Assembly (NCBI GenBank): GCA_947165355.1
Contig: CAMUZZ010000001.1
Location: 2,067 to 66,066 of the forward strand
Source of the DNA: an uncultured Clostridium sp.
Lineage (GTDB): Bacteria; Bacillota; Clostridia; TANB77; CAG-508
Length of the DNA: 64,000 nt
Direction: 5' to 3'
The notes under the pieces were generated by a model. It was not told the DNA's origin. It made no database searches and worked only from the letters and a program-made list of their open reading frames with translations. Below, piece after piece: positions 29,061-43,392 of this stretch. Position 1 is the first letter of the stretch. Each line of letters opens with the position of its first letter. The translations under genes were made by a program, and so were the position numbers.

Positions 29061-31124
<2,064 letters not shown>

Positions 31125-31130
31125 TTAGTG

Positions 31131-31229
31131 CCTTACTGGTCGCATATGTTATTAAACTAGTAAATATGTTTTAGTTGAAACAATTTAAGTAACTCTAAGC
31201 ATAATTTGTACATACTCCCAAACTGCGCG
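31131..31229 (-). repeat. Copy B of a roughly 98-nt intergenic element (minus orientation), upstream of ligA
   Basis: Read on the minus strand: CGCGCAGTTTGGGAGTATGTACAAAT ... TTTAATAACATATGCGACCAGTAAGG. About 70% identical overall to copy A at 37575..37672, with near-identical ends. TATAAAT lies 7 nt upstream. Confidence 0.6.
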
Positions 31230-31270
31230 TCATTTGATTTATATATACTTTATTAACATCCATACTTTAG

Positions 31271-34772: not shown

Positions 34773-37400
34773 CTAAGATAGCTTTTCTTTAATTTTAACC
34801 AATGTGTTAAGAGCATCAATTGGAGTTAGTTGATTAAAATCTATTTTATCAATTTCATGTGCCACCTCTGCTATTTTAAAGTTATAGTTAACATCTTGCT
34901 CTGCTACCTGCTTTGGCTCTGAAATACCGCTTGCAATATTTATTTTATTGTATGCAATATTTTTTCTTTCAAGACTTTGTAGTATTTCATTTGCTTTTGC
35001 TGTAACTACCTGTGGAACCCCTGCTAGTTTAGCAACATGAACTCCGTAGCTTTCGTCTGTTCCACCATTTACAATTTTTCTTAAGAATACTATATCTTCT
35101 CCCTTTTCTTTAACTGCAATTGAGTAATTTTTTACTCCTTCTATCTTTTCTTCTAATTCAGTTAGTTCGTGATAATGTGTTGCAAATAATGTTTTAGCTC
35201 CGCATTTTTCTTTATCAGCAATATATTCAGCAACTGCCCATGCAATTGAAAGTCCATCGTACGTTGAAGTTCCCCTACCTATTTCATCTAGAATAACCAA
35301 ACTATTTTGTGTTGCTTCTTTTAAAATTGTTGCAACCTCCATCATTTCAACCATAAATGTACTTTGACCCATGCTTAAATCATCTGATGCACCAACTCTT
35401 GTAAATATTTTGTCAACAACGCCAATTCTTGCAGAACTTGCTGGTACAAAACTTCCAACTTGTGCCATCAAAGTTATTAAAGCTACTTGCCTCATAAAAG
35501 TTGATTTTCCAGCCATATTAGGCCCTGTTATTATTGCCAACCTGTTTTCATTTTTATCTAAATATGTATCGTTTGGAACAAAATTATTAGATGTAATCAT
35601 CTTTTCGATTACAGGGTGTCTTCCATCTTTTATATCTATTATTCCTTCTTCGTCAACACTTGGTTTTACATAGTTCATGTCTTCAGCAACATTTGCAAAA
35701 GATGTTAAAACATCTAGCGTTGATATTAAGTTTGCCGTTTTTTGAACCCTTTGAATTTCTTTTTCAATAGAATCCCTTATTTCACAAAAAGCATTGTATT
35801 CTAAAATAACAACTCTTTCTTCTGCACCTAAAATTTGATTTTCTAAGTTCTTAAGATCTTCTGTTATATATCTTTCTGCATTTGCTAAAGTTTGCTTACG
35901 AATATATCGTTCTGGAACCATTGATAAATTTGACTTTGTAACTTCTATAAAATATCCAAATACTTTGTTAAAACCAACTTTTAATCCTTTAATTCCAGTT
36001 GCTTCTCGCTCTTTATTCTCTAGGTCTATTATCCACTTTTTACCCTCAGTTGTAGCTTTTTTTAATGTGTCTATTTCATCATTGTAACCAATTTTAATTA
36101 TTCCTCCATCTTTAACACCAATTGGAGGTTCATCAACTATTGATTTTTCAATTATTTCGTATATATCTTCTAACGCATCTAGTCCTTCACAAATTCCGAC
36201 TAACATTTTACTTTTAGCACTAGCTAATACTTTTTTAATATCTGGTAACTGTTTTACAGAATTTTTTAGAGATATTAAATCCCTTCCATTAGCACTTCCA
36301 TAAGATATTTTTCCTGCAAGTCTTTCTATGTCATATACTTTTTTTAGTGACTCTATTAAATCTCCTCTTAACATTATAGAGTCTTTTAGCTCTTGTACTG
36401 CATCAAGTCTACCATTTATTTCGTTTATATCTATTAATGGATCATTAAGCCATCTTCTTAATAAACGACCACCCATTGATGTAGACGTTTTATCTAAAAC
36501 CCATAGAAGAGTTCCTTTTTTAGATTTATCACGCATCTTTTCGGTAATTTCCAAATTTCTTCTTGCATTTATATCTAGTGCCATATAACGAGTAGTATTA
36601 TATATTTTTATTGTATTAATATGATCTAAGCTTGTTTTTTGAGTATCTTCTAAATATCTTAGTAATGCATTTATAGAGTATATTGCAAGCTTTTTCTCTG
36701 GTAGTTTGTTATCTTGTATTTTCTCATTTTTATCATCAACAATTTTGTACATTCCAGATAGTAGCTCAAATTCTCCATCAAAGGCATCTTCGTCCTCTTT
36801 TGAAATATATGTATCAAAACGTTCTTTTATCTTTTCAATTTCAGTTTTGCTACTAAACATCATGTCTGAAACTATAATTTCTGCTGGAGAAAATCTTGCA
36901 ATTTCATCAAGCAACCTTTCAAAATTATTGTTTTCCATTATTTGAGTTGACAAAAATTCACCTGTTGAAACATCACAAACACTAATTCCAAAATACAATC
37001 CGTTTTTGTAAATTGACATTATATAGTTGTTTTTCTTTTCTTCTAAAAGGTTTGATTCCATTACAGTTCCTGGTGTAACTACCCTAACAACCTCTCTTTT
37101 AACAATTCCTTTTGCTGTTTTAGGATCCTCTACTTGCTCGCATATTGCTACTTTGTATCCCTTTTCAATAAGCTTTGCAATATAGCCTTCGGCTGCATGA
37201 TATGGAATTCCAGACATAGGAGCTCTTTTTTCTTGGCCGCAATCTTTTCCTGTTAATGTTAGCTCAAGCTCTCTTGAAACAATTTCGGCGTCATCGTAGA
37301 ACATTTCGTAAAAGTCGCCTAATCTATAGAATAAAACACAGTCATTATACTGTTTTTTTGTATCTAAATAATGTTGCATCATAGGTGAAAATTCTGCCAT
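34773..37400 (-). CDS. mutS: DNA mismatch repair protein MutS
   Basis: GPNMAGKSTFMRQ Walker A, ST(F/Y)MxEM, DEIGRGTSTYDG; full domain complement. Confidence 0.95.
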   Translation of the reverse strand: MAEFSPMMQHYLDTKKQYNDCVLFYRLGDFYEMFYDDAEIVSRELELTLTGKDCGQEKRAPMSGIPYHAAEGYIAKLIEKGYKVAICEQVEDPKTAKGIVKREVVRVVTPGTVMESNLLEEKKNNYIMSIYKNGLYFGISVCDVSTGEFLSTQIMENNNFERLLDEIARFSPAEIIVSDMMFSSKTEIEKIKERFDTYISKEDEDAFDGEFELLSGMYKIVDDKNEKIQDNKLPEKKLAIYSINALLRYLEDTQKTSLDHINTIKIYNTTRYMALDINARRNLEITEKMRDKSKKGTLLWVLDKTSTSMGGRLLRRWLNDPLIDINEINGRLDAVQELKDSIMLRGDLIESLKKVYDIERLAGKISYGSANGRDLISLKNSVKQLPDIKKVLASAKSKMLVGICEGLDALEDIYEIIEKSIVDEPPIGVKDGGIIKIGYNDEIDTLKKATTEGKKWIIDLENKEREATGIKGLKVGFNKVFGYFIEVTKSNLSMVPERYIRKQTLANAERYITEDLKNLENQILGAEERVVILEYNAFCEIRDSIEKEIQRVQKTANLISTLDVLTSFANVAEDMNYVKPSVDEEGIIDIKDGRHPVIEKMITSNNFVPNDTYLDKNENRLAIITGPNMAGKSTFMRQVALITLMAQVGSFVPASSARIGVVDKIFTRVGASDDLSMGQSTFMVEMMEVATILKEATQNSLVILDEIGRGTSTYDGLSIAWAVAEYIADKEKCGAKTLFATHYHELTELEEKIEGVKNYSIAVKEKGEDIVFLRKIVNGGTDESYGVHVAKLAGVPQVVTAKANEILQSLERKNIAYNKINIASGISEPKQVAEQDVNYNFKIAEVAHEIDKIDFNQLTPIDALNTLVKIKEKLS

Positions 37401-37502
37401 TTGATTACCTCTTTCTTTATTTCACATTGTTATTTCTAGCAGCCATTCTATATCATTTTTCGCACTTTTTCAACAAATTTTTAAATAAAAATAAGTCAAT
37501 GC

Positions 37503-37749
37503 GGTCGGTTCTGTTTGACACAAATCTAGAAACTTTACCAAAACAAAAAAAGATAGATACATATAAATGAAAACCGCGCAGTTTGGGAGCATGTATAAAT
37601 ATAATTTAAAGTTTATTAAATATTTACATTAAAATATATTTATTGCTTTAATAACAAATGCGACCAGTAAGGTTTGAATGGTTATGTATCTATCTTTTTT
37701 AGTTTTGAATTTTTTAAAGTACCCCAATTTTTGTCAAACAGAACCGTCC
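37503..37749. mobile_element. Roughly 250-bp structure with about 65-bp imperfect terminal inverted repeats enclosing copy A of the 98-nt element (MITE-like candidate)
   Basis: IR-L 37503-37567 and IR-R 37681-37749. They share GG(T/A)CGGTTCTGTTTGACA (17/18 match) and AAAAAAGATAGATACATA (18/18) in inverted orientation. Centre 37575-37672 is copy A (CGCGCAGTTTGGGAGCATGTATAAAT...AATGCGACCAGTAAGG). Confidence 0.5.
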
Positions 37750-37762
37750 CTAATGACTCTCA

Positions 37763-39139
37763 TTAACTTATTTTTCCTTTTAAGTACCACATGTGCTCTG
37801 ATACTATTTCAAGATTTGTCATGCTTCCAATTAAACTTTCATCTCCTTCAAAGTTTACTACTTTGTTAGAATCGGTTCTTCCAGTTAGCATTTCATCGTT
37901 GTTTTTACTTTTTCCTTCTACCAATACTTTTTGTATTGTTCCTACATATTTTTTGTTATTCTCGTCTATTTGACTTTCAACAAGAGCTTTTAATCTATCA
38001 AATCTTTTATGCTTTACGTCTTCAGGAATTTGGTTTGGCATCTTATCTCCTGGTGTACCAACCCTTCTTGAATATATAAACATATATACTTGCTCAAAAT
38101 TAACTTTTCGTACAACATCTAATGTGTCTTCGAAGTCTTCTTCAGTTTCGCCAGGAAATCCTACTATAATGTCTGTTGATAAAGTTAAATTTGGTATTGT
38201 AGATTTCATTTTATCTACCAAACTTAAAAATTGCTCTTTTGTATATTTTCTATTCATAATTTTTAAAACAGCAGAGCTTCCAGATTGCAATGGTAAATGA
38301 ACTAATTTGCACACTTTCTCACAATCTCTAATTGCTTCTATTACATCATCTGTAAAATCCTTTGGATGTGGAGAAATAAATCTTATTCTCTCGATTCCAG
38401 AAATTTTGTTTACAGCTCTCAGTAATTCTGAAAACTTATTTATTCCTAAATTTCCATTTCCTTTGTATGAATTCACATTTTGTCCCAAAAGCGTTACTTC
38501 TTTATATCCGCTTCTTGCTAACTCTTCAACCTCATTTATAATGTCTTCAGGATCACGGCTACGCTCTCTACCACGAACATAAGGTACTATACAATAACTA
38601 CAGAAATTGTTGCATCCATTCATAATCGTAACAGAAGCTTTTATTGTATCATTTCTTTTTATTGGAAGGCCTTCAATAACCTCACCATCTATATCTAAGA
38701 TGTCCATTATTTTTTCTTTGTTACATAAAACGTTGTATAAATCTTCTGGCAACTTATGAAGAGTATGTGTTCCAAATATTATATCTACATAGTTATAGCT
38801 TTGTTTTATTTTATCAACAATATGTTTTTCCTGCATCATACAACCACATATTGCAATAACTGTTCCATTTTTCTCGCGAAGTCTTTTAACTTCTCCAAGT
38901 TTACCAAAAAGTTTATCTTCAGCATTTTCACGAACGCAACATGTGTTAAATATTATGAAATTTGATTCGTTAATATTATCAGTTTTTGTATACCCCATTG
39001 ACTCAAGCATGCCACATATCTTTTCCGAATCATTTTCATTTAATTGGCAACCCATTGTAAAAATTGTATATTTTAAATTTTTGCCAGCATTTAATCCATT
39101 AACTTTTTCTATAAAATCTCTCTGATTTCCTATATCCAA
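37763..39139 (-). CDS. miaB: tRNA (N6-isopentenyladenosine37) methylthiotransferase MiaB
   Basis: MTTase N-terminal cysteine cluster, radical SAM CxxxCxxC (CNNFCSYC), TRAM domain. Confidence 0.9.
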   Translation of the reverse strand: MDIGNQRDFIEKVNGLNAGKNLKYTIFTMGCQLNENDSEKICGMLESMGYTKTDNINESNFIIFNTCCVRENAEDKLFGKLGEVKRLREKNGTVIAICGCMMQEKHIVDKIKQSYNYVDIIFGTHTLHKLPEDLYNVLCNKEKIMDILDIDGEVIEGLPIKRNDTIKASVTIMNGCNNFCSYCIVPYVRGRERSRDPEDIINEVEELARSGYKEVTLLGQNVNSYKGNGNLGINKFSELLRAVNKISGIERIRFISPHPKDFTDDVIEAIRDCEKVCKLVHLPLQSGSSAVLKIMNRKYTKEQFLSLVDKMKSTIPNLTLSTDIIVGFPGETEEDFEDTLDVVRKVNFEQVYMFIYSRRVGTPGDKMPNQIPEDVKHKRFDRLKALVESQIDENNKKYVGTIQKVLVEGKSKNNDEMLTGRTDSNKVVNFEGDESLIGSMTNLEIVSEHMWYLKGKIS

Positions 39140-39333: not shown

Positions 39334-42300
39334 CTACTCAGCTAATTGTGGTTTTATTAATATTTCAAATTCTTTTTCTAGTCCTTCAGCAGAGATTTTT
39401 ACTTTGTTATAACCTACTTTCACATTGTTTTTATCATATGAAACCTCATAGTTATCGACTTTGGCATATATACCATTTCCATATTTTGCTTCAACAATCA
39501 TGCCATCAAAGTTTATTTCTCCTCGTGTAAATCTGTCATTATCTGGTAATTTAGCAATTCTTAATTCTATAGGCTTTATAGTATCTGACTCTTTTAGTAT
39601 GTACGTTACATCATCATCGTCCCTAATAACATATACTTTACTGTTATTGCTTACTCTTGTTTTAGATGGAATATCTCTATTCATCTTTTTTCCATCAATT
39701 TCTAGTACATATCTTTTTAATTCCATTGAATATAAGAAAATCTCTTTGTTAGCTGGTACTAATAAATCTTGTTCCGCAATATTTAGTCTTATATTTTCTG
39801 GAAGAGCATCAAGTTCTTCCTTTGTATATAATTCACCATACACATCAGCAAAAACATCAATATTCTTTGAAACATTATTAAAATTATAATCACCTTTTTG
39901 AATTTTTCCTAGATCAATTGCTATGCCATTTCTTACAGAACTAATTTTACTTAAATCAATTTTATTTCCTTCAACCCTATAACGCCTAATTCCAGGAAGT
40001 GCGAAAAACTCGCTTGTTTCATCCGCATTACAATAGCTAATATCTAATTTCCATAAACTTGGTAGTTCATCTAACTTGCTAATGTTTCTTTCTACTTTAT
40101 TATTTGCTAAAGATAGCTGCTTAATACTCTCATTTTTAGTTGGGAGCATATTTACATCTACAATGTTGCAGTTGTCTACATTTAAAACAACTATATATTT
40201 ATCATTTAATGATCTAAAATCACTTATATTATTACCACTTAAATTTAAGTTTCTTATTTCATCAACATCATCTAAAAACGATAAATTTGTTATTTGATTA
40301 TTAGCTAAATTCAAATTGTATAAAGACTTCTTAAAACAAGTAAATCCAGATGTATTACAATCTGATAAGTCTAAATATGTTATTTCGTTCATATTCAAAC
40401 TGTTAAGATCTTTAATATTTTTATTGCCTGCCAAGGATAAAGTAACAATTTTTGGTAGTTGATTTACATATTGAATGCTTTCAACGTTACAATTTGCAAT
40501 GTTTAATACTATTAAGTTTTTACAATTTTCGTATCCTTTAACATTTTCATTATTTTCCAATTGTAAGTTCTCTAGGCTGCTTAAAGACCCCAAAGAAGAT
40601 ACATCGGATACATTATTATTTCTTAAATCTAAATATGTTAGCTTTTTACAATTTGCAAGTGGAGTAACATCTGTAATATTATTATTTCTAGCATCTATGC
40701 CTTCCAAATTCTTTAAATACTCTATTCCTTTTAAGGATATTGCATTTTTATTTGCTATTGATATAACAGTAATATCATTTAACGTATCTTCGTTTATGTA
40801 ATCAACTCCATTAACTGTCCATGTTTGGTATTCATCTTTTATGGCATCTTCTATGGCTTTATTACCTATTTCTGATAACTTGAATCCATCTGCACCAACT
40901 TTTACAACTCCGTTCATATTTCTGTTTATAAACTCATCTTCATATGAAACATATAAACATCCTTTATCTCCCCAATTTTCTCCCCATGAGTTTAAGCATA
41001 TATATGCACCATTTTTTTCTGGCACCTTTCCACTTTCAGATTTAAATTTCTCTTTTGGATAATCATCATCCCATCCAATGACTGAAATACAATGACTTGA
41101 TGCTCTAGTACTACTATCAGTTCTATAAATGTTAACACCACTACATACAATACTTGCAGTAACCGATCCATAATTCATTATATGTCTTTTTACTATATTT
41201 TGGTATTCATTAAACTTTTGGTTTCCAACTTCTGATTTTGTAAAATCGGGAAATTCAACCGTATCTATATTTCCAATATCTACTGTGTCTACATTGAAAA
41301 ACACATTATATTCATCCTCTTTGTAGTCTTTATACTTTAATGTATCTTCCTTAGCTAGAGCTCCACTTCCATTTACATAGTCTCTCCATGTATCAAATCC
41401 TCCACCTGTGTGCAAATTTCTTCCTAAACCAGAACCCAATTCTTCAGATGTCATATAGTCTACATATATTTCAGAAAAATCATAATCTTCATTTTGTGTT
41501 AACGCTAAGTTTGTTTCTAAGGCTGTATTTGAGGCGAAGTTCCAGCATAACCCAAATCCAGCTTGATTTTCTACTTTAACATTAATTTTATCTCTTAAAT
41601 CAAATTTTCCTGGTAAAACCTTGTTTTCTGCCTTTTCGGTAGGATTATTGTTGTTATTTACTTCATTTTTTGTTTCATTATTATTTGTGTTACTGTTTTC
41701 GTTGTTATTTACGTTATTATTCACATTGTTGTTTACGCCGTTATTTACGTTATTATTCACATTGTTGTTTACGCCGTTATTTACATTATTATTTACATTA
41801 TTGTTTACGCTGTTATTTACATTATTGTTTACGTTATTATTTACATTATTGTTTACGTTGTTATTTATATTATTGTTTACGTTGTTATTTATATTATTGT
41901 TTACGTTGTTATTTACGTTATTATTTACATTGTTATTTTCGTTGTTATTTACGTTATTATTCACATTATTGTTTGAGTTATTAGCTATTTCATTTGTGTT
42001 GTTACCTTCATTATTATTTTGTTTTATATCAGGGCTTGATTCTTTTTCTACCTCTTTTAGCTCACCTAAGTCTTCATCCTGATCTTTTTTTATTATCTCA
42101 AATTCAGCTTCATCTACTTTTTTCTTTCTTGGTATAGATTCAATATCCTTCTTTTGGTCATCCGGCATACTCACATAATGTTTGTACTCATCTGTGTAAT
42201 TACGTTCATCAAGTTTTTCTTTAATAATTTCAGCTGTATCTTCTCCTTTTTTCTCGGCTTCCTCAATTTCATCTTGCATTATTACAGCACGCCTTGTGTT

Positions 42301-42546
42301 CTCATCTTTAATTTTTTCTGCTAAATAAAGCTCTTTTTCTTTCTTAGCGTTATATTCCAGTGTTTGATATGTTTGGTCTGAAGTAGTAATCTTGTTTAGA
42401 ATCGATTTAGTTATCAAAAAACTAAGTAAAAACAAGATTAATCCAACTATAATAACTATTATAGCAATTAATCCTTTTCTTGATTTCTTTTTTTCCATTA
42501 ACTTACCTCCTATATTTTCTCGCTTTTGTATATACATTTTACTCAA
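39334..42546 (-). CDS. Large membrane-anchored surface protein: Asn-rich repeat linker, papain-like C1 cysteine peptidase domain, leucine-rich repeats, C-terminal Ig-like domain
   Basis: N-terminal TM anchor; (NNNV)n run; QAGFGLCWNFA (catalytic Cys), SSHCISVIGWDD (His), NSWGENWGDKGC (Asn-Trp) motifs; about 12 LRR units (L..L.L..N.I.D). Confidence 0.8.
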   Translation of the reverse strand: MSKMYIQKRENIGGKLMEKKKSRKGLIAIIVIIVGLILFLLSFLITKSILNKITTSDQTYQTLEYNAKKEKELYLAEKIKDENTRRAVIMQDEIEEAEKKGEDTAEIIKEKLDERNYTDEYKHYVSMPDDQKKDIESIPRKKKVDEAEFEIIKKDQDEDLGELKEVEKESSPDIKQNNNEGNNTNEIANNSNNNVNNNVNNNENNNVNNNVNNNVNNNINNNVNNNINNNVNNNVNNNVNNNVNNSVNNNVNNNVNNGVNNNVNNNVNNGVNNNVNNNVNNNENSNTNNNETKNEVNNNNNPTEKAENKVLPGKFDLRDKINVKVENQAGFGLCWNFASNTALETNLALTQNEDYDFSEIYVDYMTSEELGSGLGRNLHTGGGFDTWRDYVNGSGALAKEDTLKYKDYKEDEYNVFFNVDTVDIGNIDTVEFPDFTKSEVGNQKFNEYQNIVKRHIMNYGSVTASIVCSGVNIYRTDSSTRASSHCISVIGWDDDYPKEKFKSESGKVPEKNGAYICLNSWGENWGDKGCLYVSYEDEFINRNMNGVVKVGADGFKLSEIGNKAIEDAIKDEYQTWTVNGVDYINEDTLNDITVISIANKNAISLKGIEYLKNLEGIDARNNNITDVTPLANCKKLTYLDLRNNNVSDVSSLGSLSSLENLQLENNENVKGYENCKNLIVLNIANCNVESIQYVNQLPKIVTLSLAGNKNIKDLNSLNMNEITYLDLSDCNTSGFTCFKKSLYNLNLANNQITNLSFLDDVDEIRNLNLSGNNISDFRSLNDKYIVVLNVDNCNIVDVNMLPTKNESIKQLSLANNKVERNISKLDELPSLWKLDISYCNADETSEFFALPGIRRYRVEGNKIDLSKISSVRNGIAIDLGKIQKGDYNFNNVSKNIDVFADVYGELYTKEELDALPENIRLNIAEQDLLVPANKEIFLYSMELKRYVLEIDGKKMNRDIPSKTRVSNNSKVYVIRDDDDVTYILKESDTIKPIELRIAKLPDNDRFTRGEINFDGMIVEAKYGNGIYAKVDNYEVSYDKNNVKVGYNKVKISAEGLEKEFEILIKPQLAE
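41650..42010. repeat. Imperfect 12/24-nt tandem repeats encoding the Asn-rich (NNNVNNNV...) linker
   Basis: Unit GTTGTTATTTAC-GTTATTATTCAC and variants repeated about 25 times. Also generates the spurious plus-strand ORFs 41621..42082 and 41670..41984. Confidence 0.8.
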
Positions 42547-43317: not shown

Positions 43318-43392
43318 AGGGGTATAGTGTTAATGGTAGCACATCAGTCTCCAAAACTGCCTGTGAGGGTTCGAGTCCTTCTACCCCTGCCA
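43318..43392 (+). tRNA. trnW: tRNA-Trp (anticodon CCA)
   Basis: Cloverleaf: acceptor AGGGGTA/TACCCCT, D-arm GTGT..GCAC with GG loop, anticodon loop CUCCAAA, T-arm GAGGG-TTCGAGT-CCTTC, encoded CCA end. Confidence 0.85.

Follow-up and report, generated by a model that had tools for sequence, protein, structure and literature searches.

The intergenic region between miaB and mutS in the window (the whole 64,000-nt stretch of DNA that was analysed) carries a compound palindrome, which is likely to consist of two nested palindromic repeats: an outer REP pair (REPIN-like) of a RayT-like HUH transposase family, and an inner element of ~160 nt built around a 98-nt core. The palindrome is compound and nested, its terminal hairpins belong to a multi-copy family that is found in many genomes in association with a RAYT-like gene, and occupancy of the site varies among relatives.

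Structure of the palindrome between miaB and mutS

One imperfect palindrome fills positions 37487-37775, and is thus longer than the segment of the original prediction (37503-37749); it overlaps the miaB stop codon. The predicted inverted arms and both of their repeat blocks were recovered in place, CGGTTCTGTTTGACA at 37506-37520 (+) and 37732-37746 (-), and the 18/18 block AAAAAAGATAGATACATA at 37546-37563 (+) and 37683-37700 (-). When the left arm was aligned globally with the reverse-complemented right arm, 72 of 104 columns matched (score 42.5), whereas 2000 segment pairs of the same geometry taken from the window had a mean score of -5.5 (sd 6.0, maximum 16). A repeat search of the window returned inner inverted arms at 37539-37575 and 37671-37707 (37 nt, 84% complementary), and an outer inverted pair at 37487-37501 and 37761-37775 (15 nt, 93%). 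The RNA minimum free energy of 37495-37760 was -85.5 kcal/mol on the (+) strand and -84.4 kcal/mol on the (-) strand, with z-scores of -10.3 and -11.1, respectively, and none of 200 shuffles was equally stable. Copy A of the 98-nt core sits between the arms, as had been predicted. The features of the region are as follows.

37445-37473 (-): mutS promoter-like site TTGAAA-17-TAGAAT, outside the element, conserved in relatives
37487-37775 (no strand): whole compound palindrome, between the miaB stop codon and the mutS promoter (inverted repeats, fold z-score, arm alignment)
37495-37521 (+): left REP unit GTCAATGCGGTCGGTTCTGTTTGACAC, matching the family consensus; loop 37501-37511, TTGACA 37515-37520
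37522-37545 (no strand): left intermediate arm, imperfect complement of 37701-37731 (fold, arm alignment)
37546-37574 (no strand): left inner arm AAAAAAGATAGATACATATAAATGAAAAC, with the 18/18 block and homology to the left flank of copy B
37575-37672 (+): core copy A, with invariant ends CGCGCAGTTTGGGAG and GCGACCAGTAAGG and a variable AT-rich centre
37673-37700 (no strand): right inner arm TTTGAATGGTTATGTATCTATCTTTTTT, with a U-rich run after the inner hairpin on the (-) strand (inverted repeat, comparison with copy B)
37701-37731 (no strand): right intermediate arm (fold, arm alignment)
37732-37759 (-): right REP unit, (-) strand sequence GAGTCATTAGGGACGGTTCTGTTTGACA; loop complement 37741-37750, TTGACA 37737-37732, then 17 nt and AAAAAT
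37763-37765 (-): miaB stop codon, within the outermost inverted repeat
31131-31229 (-): core copy B, in the pgsA-ligA intergenic region and ~62 nt before the ligA ATG, in opposite orientation to copy A
~31108-31130 and ~31230-31252: short arms of copy B, without REP termini

The left intermediate arm is either half of a REPIN-like spacer or an extension of the inner arm. The mutS promoter was conserved as TTGTTGAAAAAG..TATAGAAT in the relatives L005, L120, L121 and L125.

A dispersed family of REP-type hairpins

The outer ~28 nt of each arm form the hairpin TGTCAAyGG-GGACGGTTC-TGTTTGACA. The search for the 18-nt terminus that had been proposed was positive, with matches in 101 DNA stretches from dozens of genomes, which span several phyla and GC contents of 22-66%. 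The unit is ~30 nt long and consists of a TGTCAA/TTGACA stem around the conserved 11-nt loop GGGGACGGTTC, and across phyla the core of this consensus, the 10-nt motif GGGACGGTTC, was identical. While the loop is conserved, the stem varies between genomes in a compensatory fashion: over 10 stem positions in 214 distinct units, 70% were paired in register, compared with 34-42% when the partner was slid. The perfect TTGACA box noted earlier in the left arm is present; it occurs in both arms, facing inward, and belongs to the REP consensus.

Copies occur singly, as inward-facing inverted pairs and in tandem arrays with a period of ~35 nt. Up to eight DNA stretches came from one MAG, and up to 13 copies of the motif were found in one 8-kb locus. 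The hairpin is mostly extragenic (31% of unit centres lay in long ORFs, which cover 84% of the loci). Among adjacent copies, 56 pairs were inward-facing ('+-'), 56 were tandem and four were '-+', so that the pair in the window has the geometry of 56 of the 60 inverted pairs found elsewhere. Its loop-to-loop distance is 229 nt, against the usual 26-65 nt. The number of tandem units differs between close strains, both between the window and the locus L001 and between L116 and L112-115. In L001, 25 extra nt at the left REP give two tandem units; the left unit in the window, the loop of which is degenerate at two positions (GCGGTCGGTTC), is a hybrid of the two. Nearly the same variant as the right unit flanks a RAYT-like gene in Acetoanaerobium noterae.

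No further REP pair was found in the 64-kb window, and no second copy of the whole doublet in any examined locus except the orthologous site in L001. Viral contigs yielded no REP 19-mer, no core and just two distant RAYT-like matches, and a phage vector is therefore not indicated. BLAST of the element and of the human-gut copy against phage and plasmid sequences gave nothing significant, save for the lead to A. noterae. Full-text literature searches with the loop and core-end sequences returned only coincidences with primers.

It was also observed that several 18-mer matches (e.g. L008, L015, L056, L064 and L067) had no hairpin context or had near-identical recurring flanks; these look like chance or coding-sequence matches.

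A RAYT-like transposase beside the hairpins

ORF clustering across the 101 loci showed a protein of ~245 aa recurring beside the hairpins in six MAGs, and this was the only type of gene associated with the termini. The protein matched Pfam Y1_Tnp (PF01797) with 49.5-50.5 bits (cut-off 23), and its top NCBIfam match was the REP-associated tyrosine transposase (NF047646), with 54.6 and 48.4 bits, below the cut-off of 80. The motifs N-H-x-H-L and R-Y-I-x-x-N-P were invariant. A profile of the protein aligned its HUH and Y-x-x-N-P motifs with those of E. coli TnpA-REP (4er8), a weak match (E 0.099). An 80%-identical homologue was named 'REP element-mobilizing transposase RayT' by JGI, and simply 'transposase' by NCBI.

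Inverted hairpins were found on both sides of the gene in L025, L044, L071, L073 and the cultured A. noterae (L126). The A. noterae gene lies at 421884-422633 of NZ_CP154629.1 (strain DSL2). L085 had only the upstream copy, and L066 had both copies at one end of the gene, the (+) copy 38 nt upstream and the inverted copy within the called ORF. In four transposase loci, the TTGACA of the hairpin was followed at 17 nt by a -10-like hexamer. No RAYT-like gene was found in the 64-kb window or in L001-L007. Since an IS200-like Y1 gene, named RayT by JGI, accompanies inverted copies of the hairpin, the arm termini are REPs and the pair is REPIN-like.

The nested core element

According to the original prediction, copy B near ligA lacks the arms, which would make them a layer separate from the core. 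Copy B does lack the GGACGGTTC termini, but it has an inverted repeat of its own of ~15-20 nt (AAAGTATATATAAAT / ATTTTTGTATATACCTT), and its flanks are ~76% similar to the inner arms of copy A over 142 nt, the homology of the two sets of arms lying close to the core. The outer arms form a separate layer of the repeat type, whereas the inner ~30 nt of each arm travel with the core element.

The core family comprises four distinct variants. Relatives of the core in human-gut contigs have inverted arms of their own, differing in sequence, with invariant core ends; core copies elsewhere likewise have different inverted arms at their flanks. The human-gut copy had one orientation in all six assemblies. 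The junction of the core is asymmetric and invariant (CGCGCAG-UUGG-GA-GC ... GC-GA-CCAG-UAAGG), the arms covary and the apical region is freely variable. RNAalifold retained a helix in the core, UUGG-GA-GC / GC-GA-CCAG (the UUGGGAGC/GCGACCAG helix); its tandem G.A is purine-purine on the (+) strand of the core but not on the (-) strand. The stability of the copy B region did not exceed that of shuffles (z -0.3 and -0.1). No further core copies were found in ~1 Mb of examined loci.

Several readings of this interior were abandoned. A loose GGRAGC...GCGACC pattern matches GC-rich coding DNA by chance, and L110 and L117 (60% GC) were chance matches to the core pattern. By inspection, no small ORF had a frame conserved over the four variants. 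A guide-like complementarity of the centre to its own arms was dropped, since L109 and L111 have common arms and different centres. No remnant of a RAYT gene was found in the interior by tblastn. The inner block resembles the L121 terminator, and its interpretation as the ancestral miaB terminator was dropped because the copy B flanks are homologous to the block.

The nested core is the only part of the compound without a known counterpart. In L079, from a second AT-rich Clostridia MAG, a REP doublet bears at its apex a miniature of the same GGTCGC...GCTCCA motif, which hints at a functional link between the RayT-like system and the module. Tentatively, and as a minor possibility, the arms and the 98-nt core together may represent a structured element of an undescribed class (RNA or ssDNA), found at the apex of long palindromes, REP doublets among them, and may serve the RayT-like system as a recognition or cleavage module or form the cargo of a cargo-carrying REPIN.

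Site occupancy in relatives and a proposed model

The basal state of the site, a miaB terminator followed by the mutS promoter, was found in L120, L121 and L125. Relatives have either the miaB terminator alone or other cargo at the same site; in those with 85-92% MiaB identity the palindrome is absent and the mutS promoter is the same. The suggested search for empty sites thus showed presence and absence at the site, but recovered no precise empty site with near-identical flanks among the relatives and no target-site duplication; the flanks AAAAATAAGTCAATG / CATTAACTTATTTTT are inverted, not direct.

In the proposed model, the outer layer consists of two inward-facing REP-type hairpins of ~30 nt, the REP of a RayT-like HUH (Y1, IS200-like) transposase family that is common in rumen and gut anaerobes. 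The inverted pair has the architecture of a REPIN, a non-autonomous element, and would be mobilised in trans by the RAYT as an ssDNA hairpin without target-site duplication. The inner layer is a palindrome of ~160 nt, inner arms plus 98-nt core, which belongs with copy B and the human-gut contigs to a small family of dispersed elements. Within this family the arms differ in sequence yet remain complementary, both of the asymmetric core ends are invariant and the centre is free to vary. The nesting presumably arose through successive events. The compound occupies the exact place of the miaB intrinsic terminator of the relatives, with T-rich runs following on both strands; given this position and these runs, it probably acts as a 3' hairpin or terminator for miaB and as an insulator before the intact mutS promoter.

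Comparison with known repeat systems

The family resembles the REP/BIME/REPIN and RAYT (TnpA-REP) systems of E. coli and Pseudomonas. In both, short extragenic hairpins are present singly, as inverted dimers or in clusters, and one IS200-like HUH Y1 gene is bracketed by inverted copies. Both also lack target-site duplications, form long hairpins from doublets and vary between strains in the number of units. As an imperfect palindrome of ~30 nt, the unit lies within the 20-40 nt of REPs, and across loci it is multicopy and mostly extragenic, with singles, dimers and clusters. The window has an inverted REP pair, 37495-37521 (+) and 37732-37759 (-), that forms one long hairpin with an unusually long spacer. 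The Y1 HUH domain with its HUH and catalytic Tyr motifs, and the REP-flanked gene, were found in other genomes.

There are also differences. The conserved block is here the 11-nt loop, whereas in the described systems it is a terminal GTAG or CGTC tag with a conserved stem; the terminal tag of either of the two described REP superfamilies was absent from the hairpin family, in which CGTC appears only within the loop, on the complementary strand. One loop here spans 22-66% GC and several phyla, while REPIN-RAYT systems are described in the literature as mostly lineage-specific and vertically inherited. The transposase has a C-terminal extension of ~100 aa ending in an HTH-like segment, and the doublet has a palindromic interior of 210 nt instead of a short spacer. 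The REP families listed by Di Nocera (2013) include none from Firmicutes. Group 1 RAYTs (Bertels, Gallie & Rainey 2017, PMC5581495) are reported from 21 bacterial classes including Clostridia, with flanking 16-mers that are only modestly repeated and with signs of horizontal transfer; the present family may share these features, and its hairpin is not described in that paper.

ERIC, Correia, BOX and RUP elements are similarly imperfect palindromes of 100-250 bp that are co-transcribed and sometimes carry promoter hexamers and internal insertions. They differ in having consensus sequences of their own, to which no sequence similarity was found, and in that the termini here are autonomous hairpins; Correia and RUP further differ by target duplications tied to DDE-type IS. 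The Bacillus-plasmid RNA of Rfam (RF01691), described only from Bacillus plasmids (Weinberg 2010), has a consensus hairpin, UGUGUCAACGG...GUUGACACAUUC, whose stem and 3' tail are those of the commonest REP form. However, the scores of consensus REP units (19.5-19.8 bits) stayed below the gathering score of 31, the interior of the model (32 nt) was unmatched, and the window copy gave no match. A search of the whole window against Rfam detected only 6S RNA and one tRNA at threshold, and nothing reached threshold in copy A, the REP arrays or the human-gut cores, for which only miRNA-type hairpin noise was obtained.

Alternative explanations

The main function of the element could instead be that of a structured RNA, either a miaB 3' UTR or an sRNA of ~170 nt from the promoter-like site on the (-) strand of the right arm (TTGACA-17-AAAAAT), with a role in termination, in stabilisation or as a substrate of RNase III, and with the core as a new ncRNA closed by the arms. 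This would agree with the very stable fold on both strands, the covarying arms and invariant junctions of the core copies, the strand-specific tandem G.A, the promoter-like site and the T-run after the inner hairpin, the (+) strand of the core being co-directional with the downstream gene in three of four contexts, and the sub-threshold RF01691 match of the REP unit. We nevertheless consider it improbable, as no copy reached the threshold of any Rfam family, the copy B region did not exceed shuffles in stability, the centre has no conserved structure, and four distinct variants are too few for a covariation test. Moreover, the core strand that is sense at the other copies runs antisense to the neighbours of copy A, and hairpins of HUH elements act as ssDNA, which explains the covariation equally. 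The REP/REPIN reading itself faces the missing GTAG/CGTC tag, the sub-cut-off NCBIfam score, the weak 4er8 match, the lack of a RAYT-like gene in the window and L001-L007, the single REP pair in 64 kb, the degenerate left loop, the wide loop spacing and the failure to recover a precise empty site with near-identical flanks.

The region had originally been read as a MITE-like element that captured the 98-nt element, as an invertible segment or as a long-stem RNA. A classical MITE would be a deletion derivative of a DDE-transposase IS, and the ~65-nt arms would be its terminal inverted repeats. Inverted termini, small size, intergenic location and presence/absence among relatives would all suit a classical MITE, which is very unlikely given that there is no flanking direct repeat and the borders belong to the palindrome, that the termini are mostly single hairpins and tandem arrays, unlike terminal inverted repeats, that the full element had no second copy anywhere searched, and that the one gene repeatedly bracketed encodes an HUH Y1 and not a DDE transposase; ORF clustering over the 101 loci gave no parent IS of the DDE type. 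Nesting of two palindromes fits better than capture, since the inner ~30 nt of each arm travel with the core. Still less likely is an inverton, in which the arms would be recombinase sites flipping the core and a promoter relative to mutS. Inverted repeats do flank ~100-200 bp just upstream of a gene, and copies A and B are oppositely oriented relative to their downstream genes; however, neither copy changes orientation between two independent assemblies, the window and L001, the human-gut copy has one orientation in all six of its assemblies, arm sequences differ within one genome and so offer no common recombinase site, no recombinase gene lies near the element (its neighbours are miaB and mutS), and the core has no convincing promoter. 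Least likely of all is a locus-specific operator for mutS or miaB without mobile origin: the palindrome does lie immediately upstream of the mutS promoter, but its terminal sequence recurs in about 100 unrelated loci in many genomes, and relatives at 85-92% MiaB identity lack it and have the same promoter.

Implications

The element is a compound selfish palindrome of the REP/REPIN kind at the position of the miaB terminator, rather than a DNA switch or a classical MITE. The hairpins and adjacent 'transposase' genes in MAGs of Clostridia, Negativicutes, Coriobacteriia and Bacteroidota can be labelled as REP/RAYT-type; descriptions of REPs from this setting are scarce. The same loop across phyla is at odds with a strictly lineage-bound view of REPIN-RAYT systems and points to the loop as the determinant recognised by the transposase; it would make this an unusually promiscuous, loop-recognised REP system.

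Directly upstream of mutS the miaB terminator has given way to a selfish palindrome, and ligA is preceded by a sister copy of the core; the effect on the expression of these two DNA-repair genes would be worth measuring. Contigs of relatives were also found to end at the repeat, which accounts for the contig breaks downstream of miaB.

Organization of the palindrome

The element between miaB and mutS is best supported as two nested palindromic repeats, with the following features in and around it:

34773-37400, - strand: mutS (NCBIfam equivalog model)
37763-39139, - strand: miaB (NCBIfam equivalog model)
37487-37775: whole palindrome, reaching into the miaB stop codon
37575-37672: copy A of the 98-nt core, within the palindrome
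31131-31229: core copy B, in the opposite orientation to copy A, between pgsA and ligA

The palindrome was originally predicted at 37503-37749; it does exist, but this interval proved too short. A repeat search of the window detected inverted arms at 37539-37575 and 37671-37707 (84% complementary) and an outer inverted pair at 37487-37501 and 37761-37775 (93% complementary). When the left arm was aligned to the reverse-complemented right arm, 72 of 104 columns matched and the score was 42.5, far beyond the maximum of 16 (mean -5.5) among 2000 pairs of segments drawn from the window with identical geometry. Folded as RNA, 37495-37760 formed a single long hairpin on either strand with strongly negative z values (-10.3 and -11.1), and together with the alignment this confirms that the inverted arms are real. 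Both of the near-perfect blocks described in mirrored positions were also present. The element's two borders, themselves part of the palindrome, were searched for target-site duplications, and no direct repeat was found.

The hairpin (REP) family

The search for the 18-mer terminus proposed in the original prediction was carried out with the pattern GGWCGGTTCTGTTTGACA over one genome per GTDB species. It matched 101 stretches of DNA, mostly from rumen and gut MAGs, in loci with a GC content of 22% to 66%. They included Lachnospiraceae RGIG8306 (8 stretches) and RGIG7058 (6), 'actinobacterium' RUG033 (8), Oscillospiraceae RUI382 (6), Syntrophomonas (4), Clostridia BRZ_EL_bin65 (4), and Olsenella, Selenomonadaceae and Bacteroidaceae (one each). 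A few matches without hairpin context resemble chance or coding-sequence matches.

Viewed with its flanks, the 18-mer forms the loop and right stem of a hairpin about 30 nt long, (A)TGTGTCAAyGG-GGACGGTTC-TGTTTGACACAT. Loop sequence is conserved, and stems vary between genomes in a compensatory fashion (GTGTTTTT/AAAAACAC, GTGACAAT/ATTTGTCAC, GTGCCACC/CCTGGCAC, GGAAACAA/ATGTTTCC, and TTAAATTTT/AAAAATTTAA in L002, a relative with 92% MiaB). Among 214 distinct units, each with the exact loop motif, stem pairing over ten positions was 70% in register compared with 34-42% when the partner was slid, and several stem pairs showed two or three Watson-Crick types.

Only 31% of unit centres fell within ORFs of at least 120 aa, compared with 84% ORF coverage of the loci. 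Units occurred singly, in tandem arrays with a period of ~35 nt (loci L068 and L073) and as inverted pairs. Neighbouring units no more than 400 nt apart were either inward-facing ('+-', n = 56) or tandem (n = 56), with only four '-+' pairs, and the TTGACA boxes of '+-' pairs point inward, as in the window. The loop-to-loop gap is usually 26-65 nt, which places the window pair (229 nt) in the upper tail. No further hairpin unit was found in the 64-kb window, and a BLAST search with the complete element across all loci fetched matched only hairpin units of ~26-38 nt, except in the relative L001.

A RayT-like gene beside the hairpins

When the ORFs of the 101 loci were clustered, one protein family of ~245-255 aa was found to recur next to hairpins in six MAGs. 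The protein matched Pfam Y1_Tnp (IS200-like) above threshold, and its best NCBIfam model was 'REP-associated tyrosine transposase', with a score below the model cut-off. A profile of seven members matched E. coli TnpA-REP (4er8) at E = 0.099, followed by IS200-type TnpA structures, and the invariant N-H-x-H-L and R-Y-I-x-x-N-P motifs aligned with 4er8. Relatives in a large protein collection comprised >6000 clusters at E <= 1e-10, many of them on ~1-kb contigs; NCBI labels were 'transposase', and one JGI cluster was labelled 'REP element-mobilizing transposase RayT'.

Transposase genes bracketed by inverted copies of their own hairpin are the signature of REP/RAYT systems, whereas the ends of IS200/IS605 elements are co-oriented. 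In four MAG loci a + hairpin lay upstream of the gene (29-73 nt in L025 and L044, 299 nt in L071, 258 nt in L073) and an inverted one 13-158 nt past its stop. The cultured Acetoanaerobium noterae has the same arrangement, with a hairpin variant, ATCATTAGGGACGGTTCTTTTTGAT, that closely resembles the right arm of the window, GAGTCATTAGGGACGGTTCTGTTTGACA. In L066 the + hairpin was 38 nt upstream and the inverted one within the called ORF; in L085 only the upstream hairpin was present beside the gene. Direct reading of the sequences placed the hairpin TTGACA 17 nt from a TAnnnT hexamer ahead of the gene in four loci. The 64-kb window contained no RAYT-like gene.

Two loci of Clostridia RGIG6132 (L027 and L052) carry three copies of a ~130-nt sequence after a REP unit, and these look like decayed REP-RAYT copies because a C-terminal RAYT remnant of 23 aa is still present in them.

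The core and the inner arms

A two-ended pattern search for the core in metagenome contigs gave seven real matches; L110 and L117 were rejected as chance matches in 60%-GC coding DNA. Six of the seven come from a single human-gut locus, where an M23 peptidase gene is followed by a terminator, the element, a CIRCE-like box and htpG; the remaining one (L111) has a different context. These cores are flanked by inverted repeats unlike those of the window, consisting of a 22-mer without mismatches (GAAGATATTATATTATAAAAAT). Both ends of the core, CGCGCAGTTTGGGAG and GCGACCAGTAAGG, are invariant, and the ~70-nt centre is strongly divergent even between L111 and the human-gut copy L109, whose arms are identical.

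Copy B, described as lacking these arms, does have its own, shorter inverted repeat, and its flanks are homologous to the inner arms of copy A. This assigns the innermost ~30 nt of both arms to the core and not to the hairpin layer.

RNAalifold of six sequences retained a single helix, UUGG-GA-GC / GC-GA-CCAG. On the core (+) strand this helix has a G.A/A.G tandem mismatch; on the opposite strand the mismatched bases are pyrimidines. The copy B region was no more stable than shuffled sequence, no core copy matched an Rfam family, and no conserved ORF or promoter was evident in the core.

Other doublets enclose GC-rich sequence. In an AT-rich Clostridia MAG (L079, 2481-2632), the two units of a '+-' pair are separated by 131 nt; the arms are long and palindromic, and the GC-rich apex, GGCGCGGGTCGCTGCTTGCTCCAGCTT, looks like a miniature of the GGTCGC...GCTCCCA ends of the core, although the motifs are short and this may be coincidence. 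Long '+-' doublets in different Lachnospiraceae MAGs (L096, 6481-6860; L063, 2865-3140) form very stable palindromes (MFE -214 and -125 kcal/mol) around a common GC-rich cargo of ~100 nt (GGATTTGAGGGGGCCCGCTTCGAC...GAAAAGCGATCTCGGAAATCGCTTTTCTCCCCTCATCC), for which no Rfam match was found. The human-gut core copy (L109/L115; 1845-2035 in L115) is preceded by GTAGAGTAGTGTAG, with three GTAG, and followed by GGAACGGTTT, which shares 8 of 10 positions with the loop motif of the REP, GGGACGGTTC; genuine REP units of the family lie 2 kb away, past htpG.

History of the site in relatives

Syntenic loci were reached through MiaB homologues, and occupancy varied among relatives. L001 (96% MiaB) has the palindrome and copy B as in the window, plus 25 extra nt, GAACCGTCCCTAATGACTCAAAACG, that create two hairpin units in tandem in the left arm as well as a perfect terminal inverted repeat of 28 nt. 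The left unit of the window is a hybrid of these two, consistent with a deletion between repeated GAACCG. In L120, L121 and L125 (85-90% MiaB) the site is only 153-168 nt long and comprises an ordinary terminator hairpin for miaB and, beyond it, the conserved promoter of mutS, TTGTTGAAAAAG...TATAGAAT. The pgsA-ligA spacer of 73-106 nt in L006, L007, L120 and L121 represents the unoccupied state of the copy B site. Human-gut contigs likewise differ in unit number at a site orthologous among them, with two tandem units in L116 versus one in L112-115.

Both spacers are insertion hotspots in relatives (miaB-mutS in L002-L007 and L118, pgsA-ligA in L002 and L119), and a 258-aa zinc-ribbon membrane protein is among their cargo. 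In the miaB-mutS spacer the cargo is:

L005-7: DUF4160/DUF2442 gene pair, bracketed by TGTGGCACTTTTT direct repeats
L002-4: 104-aa ORF and L002-type hairpins
L118: 3-kb insert with a DUF3800 gene

Three metagenome contigs of the L002 lineage (L122, L123 and L124) end 195-296 nt past miaB. One of these ends falls inside a REP unit, pointing to REP repeats as a cause of breaks in short-read assemblies.

Interpretation and comparison with known systems

The element is probably a member of the REP/REPIN type with a nested element inside. The outer layer would be a REP pair in REPIN geometry, part of a system with a RayT-like HUH transposase that is common among anaerobes of gut and rumen, and the inner layer would be a member of a small family of palindromic elements with conserved asymmetric ends. 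Nesting could have arisen by insertion of one element at the apex of the other or by movement of the composite as a unit, neither order being favoured.

A MITE of the DDE type was not borne out, the gene that recurs beside the hairpins in other loci being a Y1 transposase and the borders having no direct repeats. HUH Y1 enzymes (IS200/IS605 TnpA, E. coli TnpA-REP) use single-stranded hairpin substrates and produce no target duplication, which fits the covarying stems and the missing direct repeats. A regulatory palindrome unique to this site is contradicted by the 101 DNA stretches carrying the 18-mer, and an invertible DNA switch was not demonstrable.

The compound sits at the miaB terminator position, with T-rich runs following in both directions. 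A probable role is thus to terminate or stabilise transcripts of miaB; it probably also insulates the intact mutS promoter. A weak -35/-10 match on the - strand (TTGACA-17-AAAAAT) is a predicted site that could send transcripts into the core.

The window element works like REP/BIME/REPIN-RAYT systems, but its conserved determinant is the loop. Described REP superfamilies carry a terminal GTAG or CGTC tag, which this family lacks, and have not been reported from Firmicutes. The loop is identical across phyla, whereas REPIN-RAYT systems are described as mostly vertically inherited. Group 1 RAYTs, however, have been reported across 21 bacterial classes, Clostridia among them, with some indication of horizontal transfer (PMC5581495). 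Unlike the usual REPIN, the window doublet encloses 210 nt.

REP units with the commonest stem scored 19.5-19.8 bits against the Rfam Bacillus-plasmid RNA (RF01691), below its gathering score of 31; these were consensus units at 4062-4101 in L060 and 6796-6880 in L096. The consensus stem of this RNA, UGUGUCAACGG...GUUGACACAUUC, coincides with that of the REP, and it may be a related hairpin.

Other features of the window and loci

A REP-rich Lachnospiraceae contig (L011, 2384-2487, - strand) matched Rfam Clostridiales-1 RNA at 35.9 bits, below the gathering score of 48. Above threshold, the window gave just two Rfam matches:

61419-61604, - strand: 6S RNA (98 bits)
43318-43389, + strand: tRNA

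A long run of repeats with a 12-nt period (41609-42028) lies inside a 1070-aa ORF (39334-42546, - strand), a gene for a leucine-rich-repeat, internalin-like surface protein. This gene position varies in relatives: L001 has a 1054-aa ORF here, and L118 encodes a 1242-aa LRR/peptidase C1 protein.
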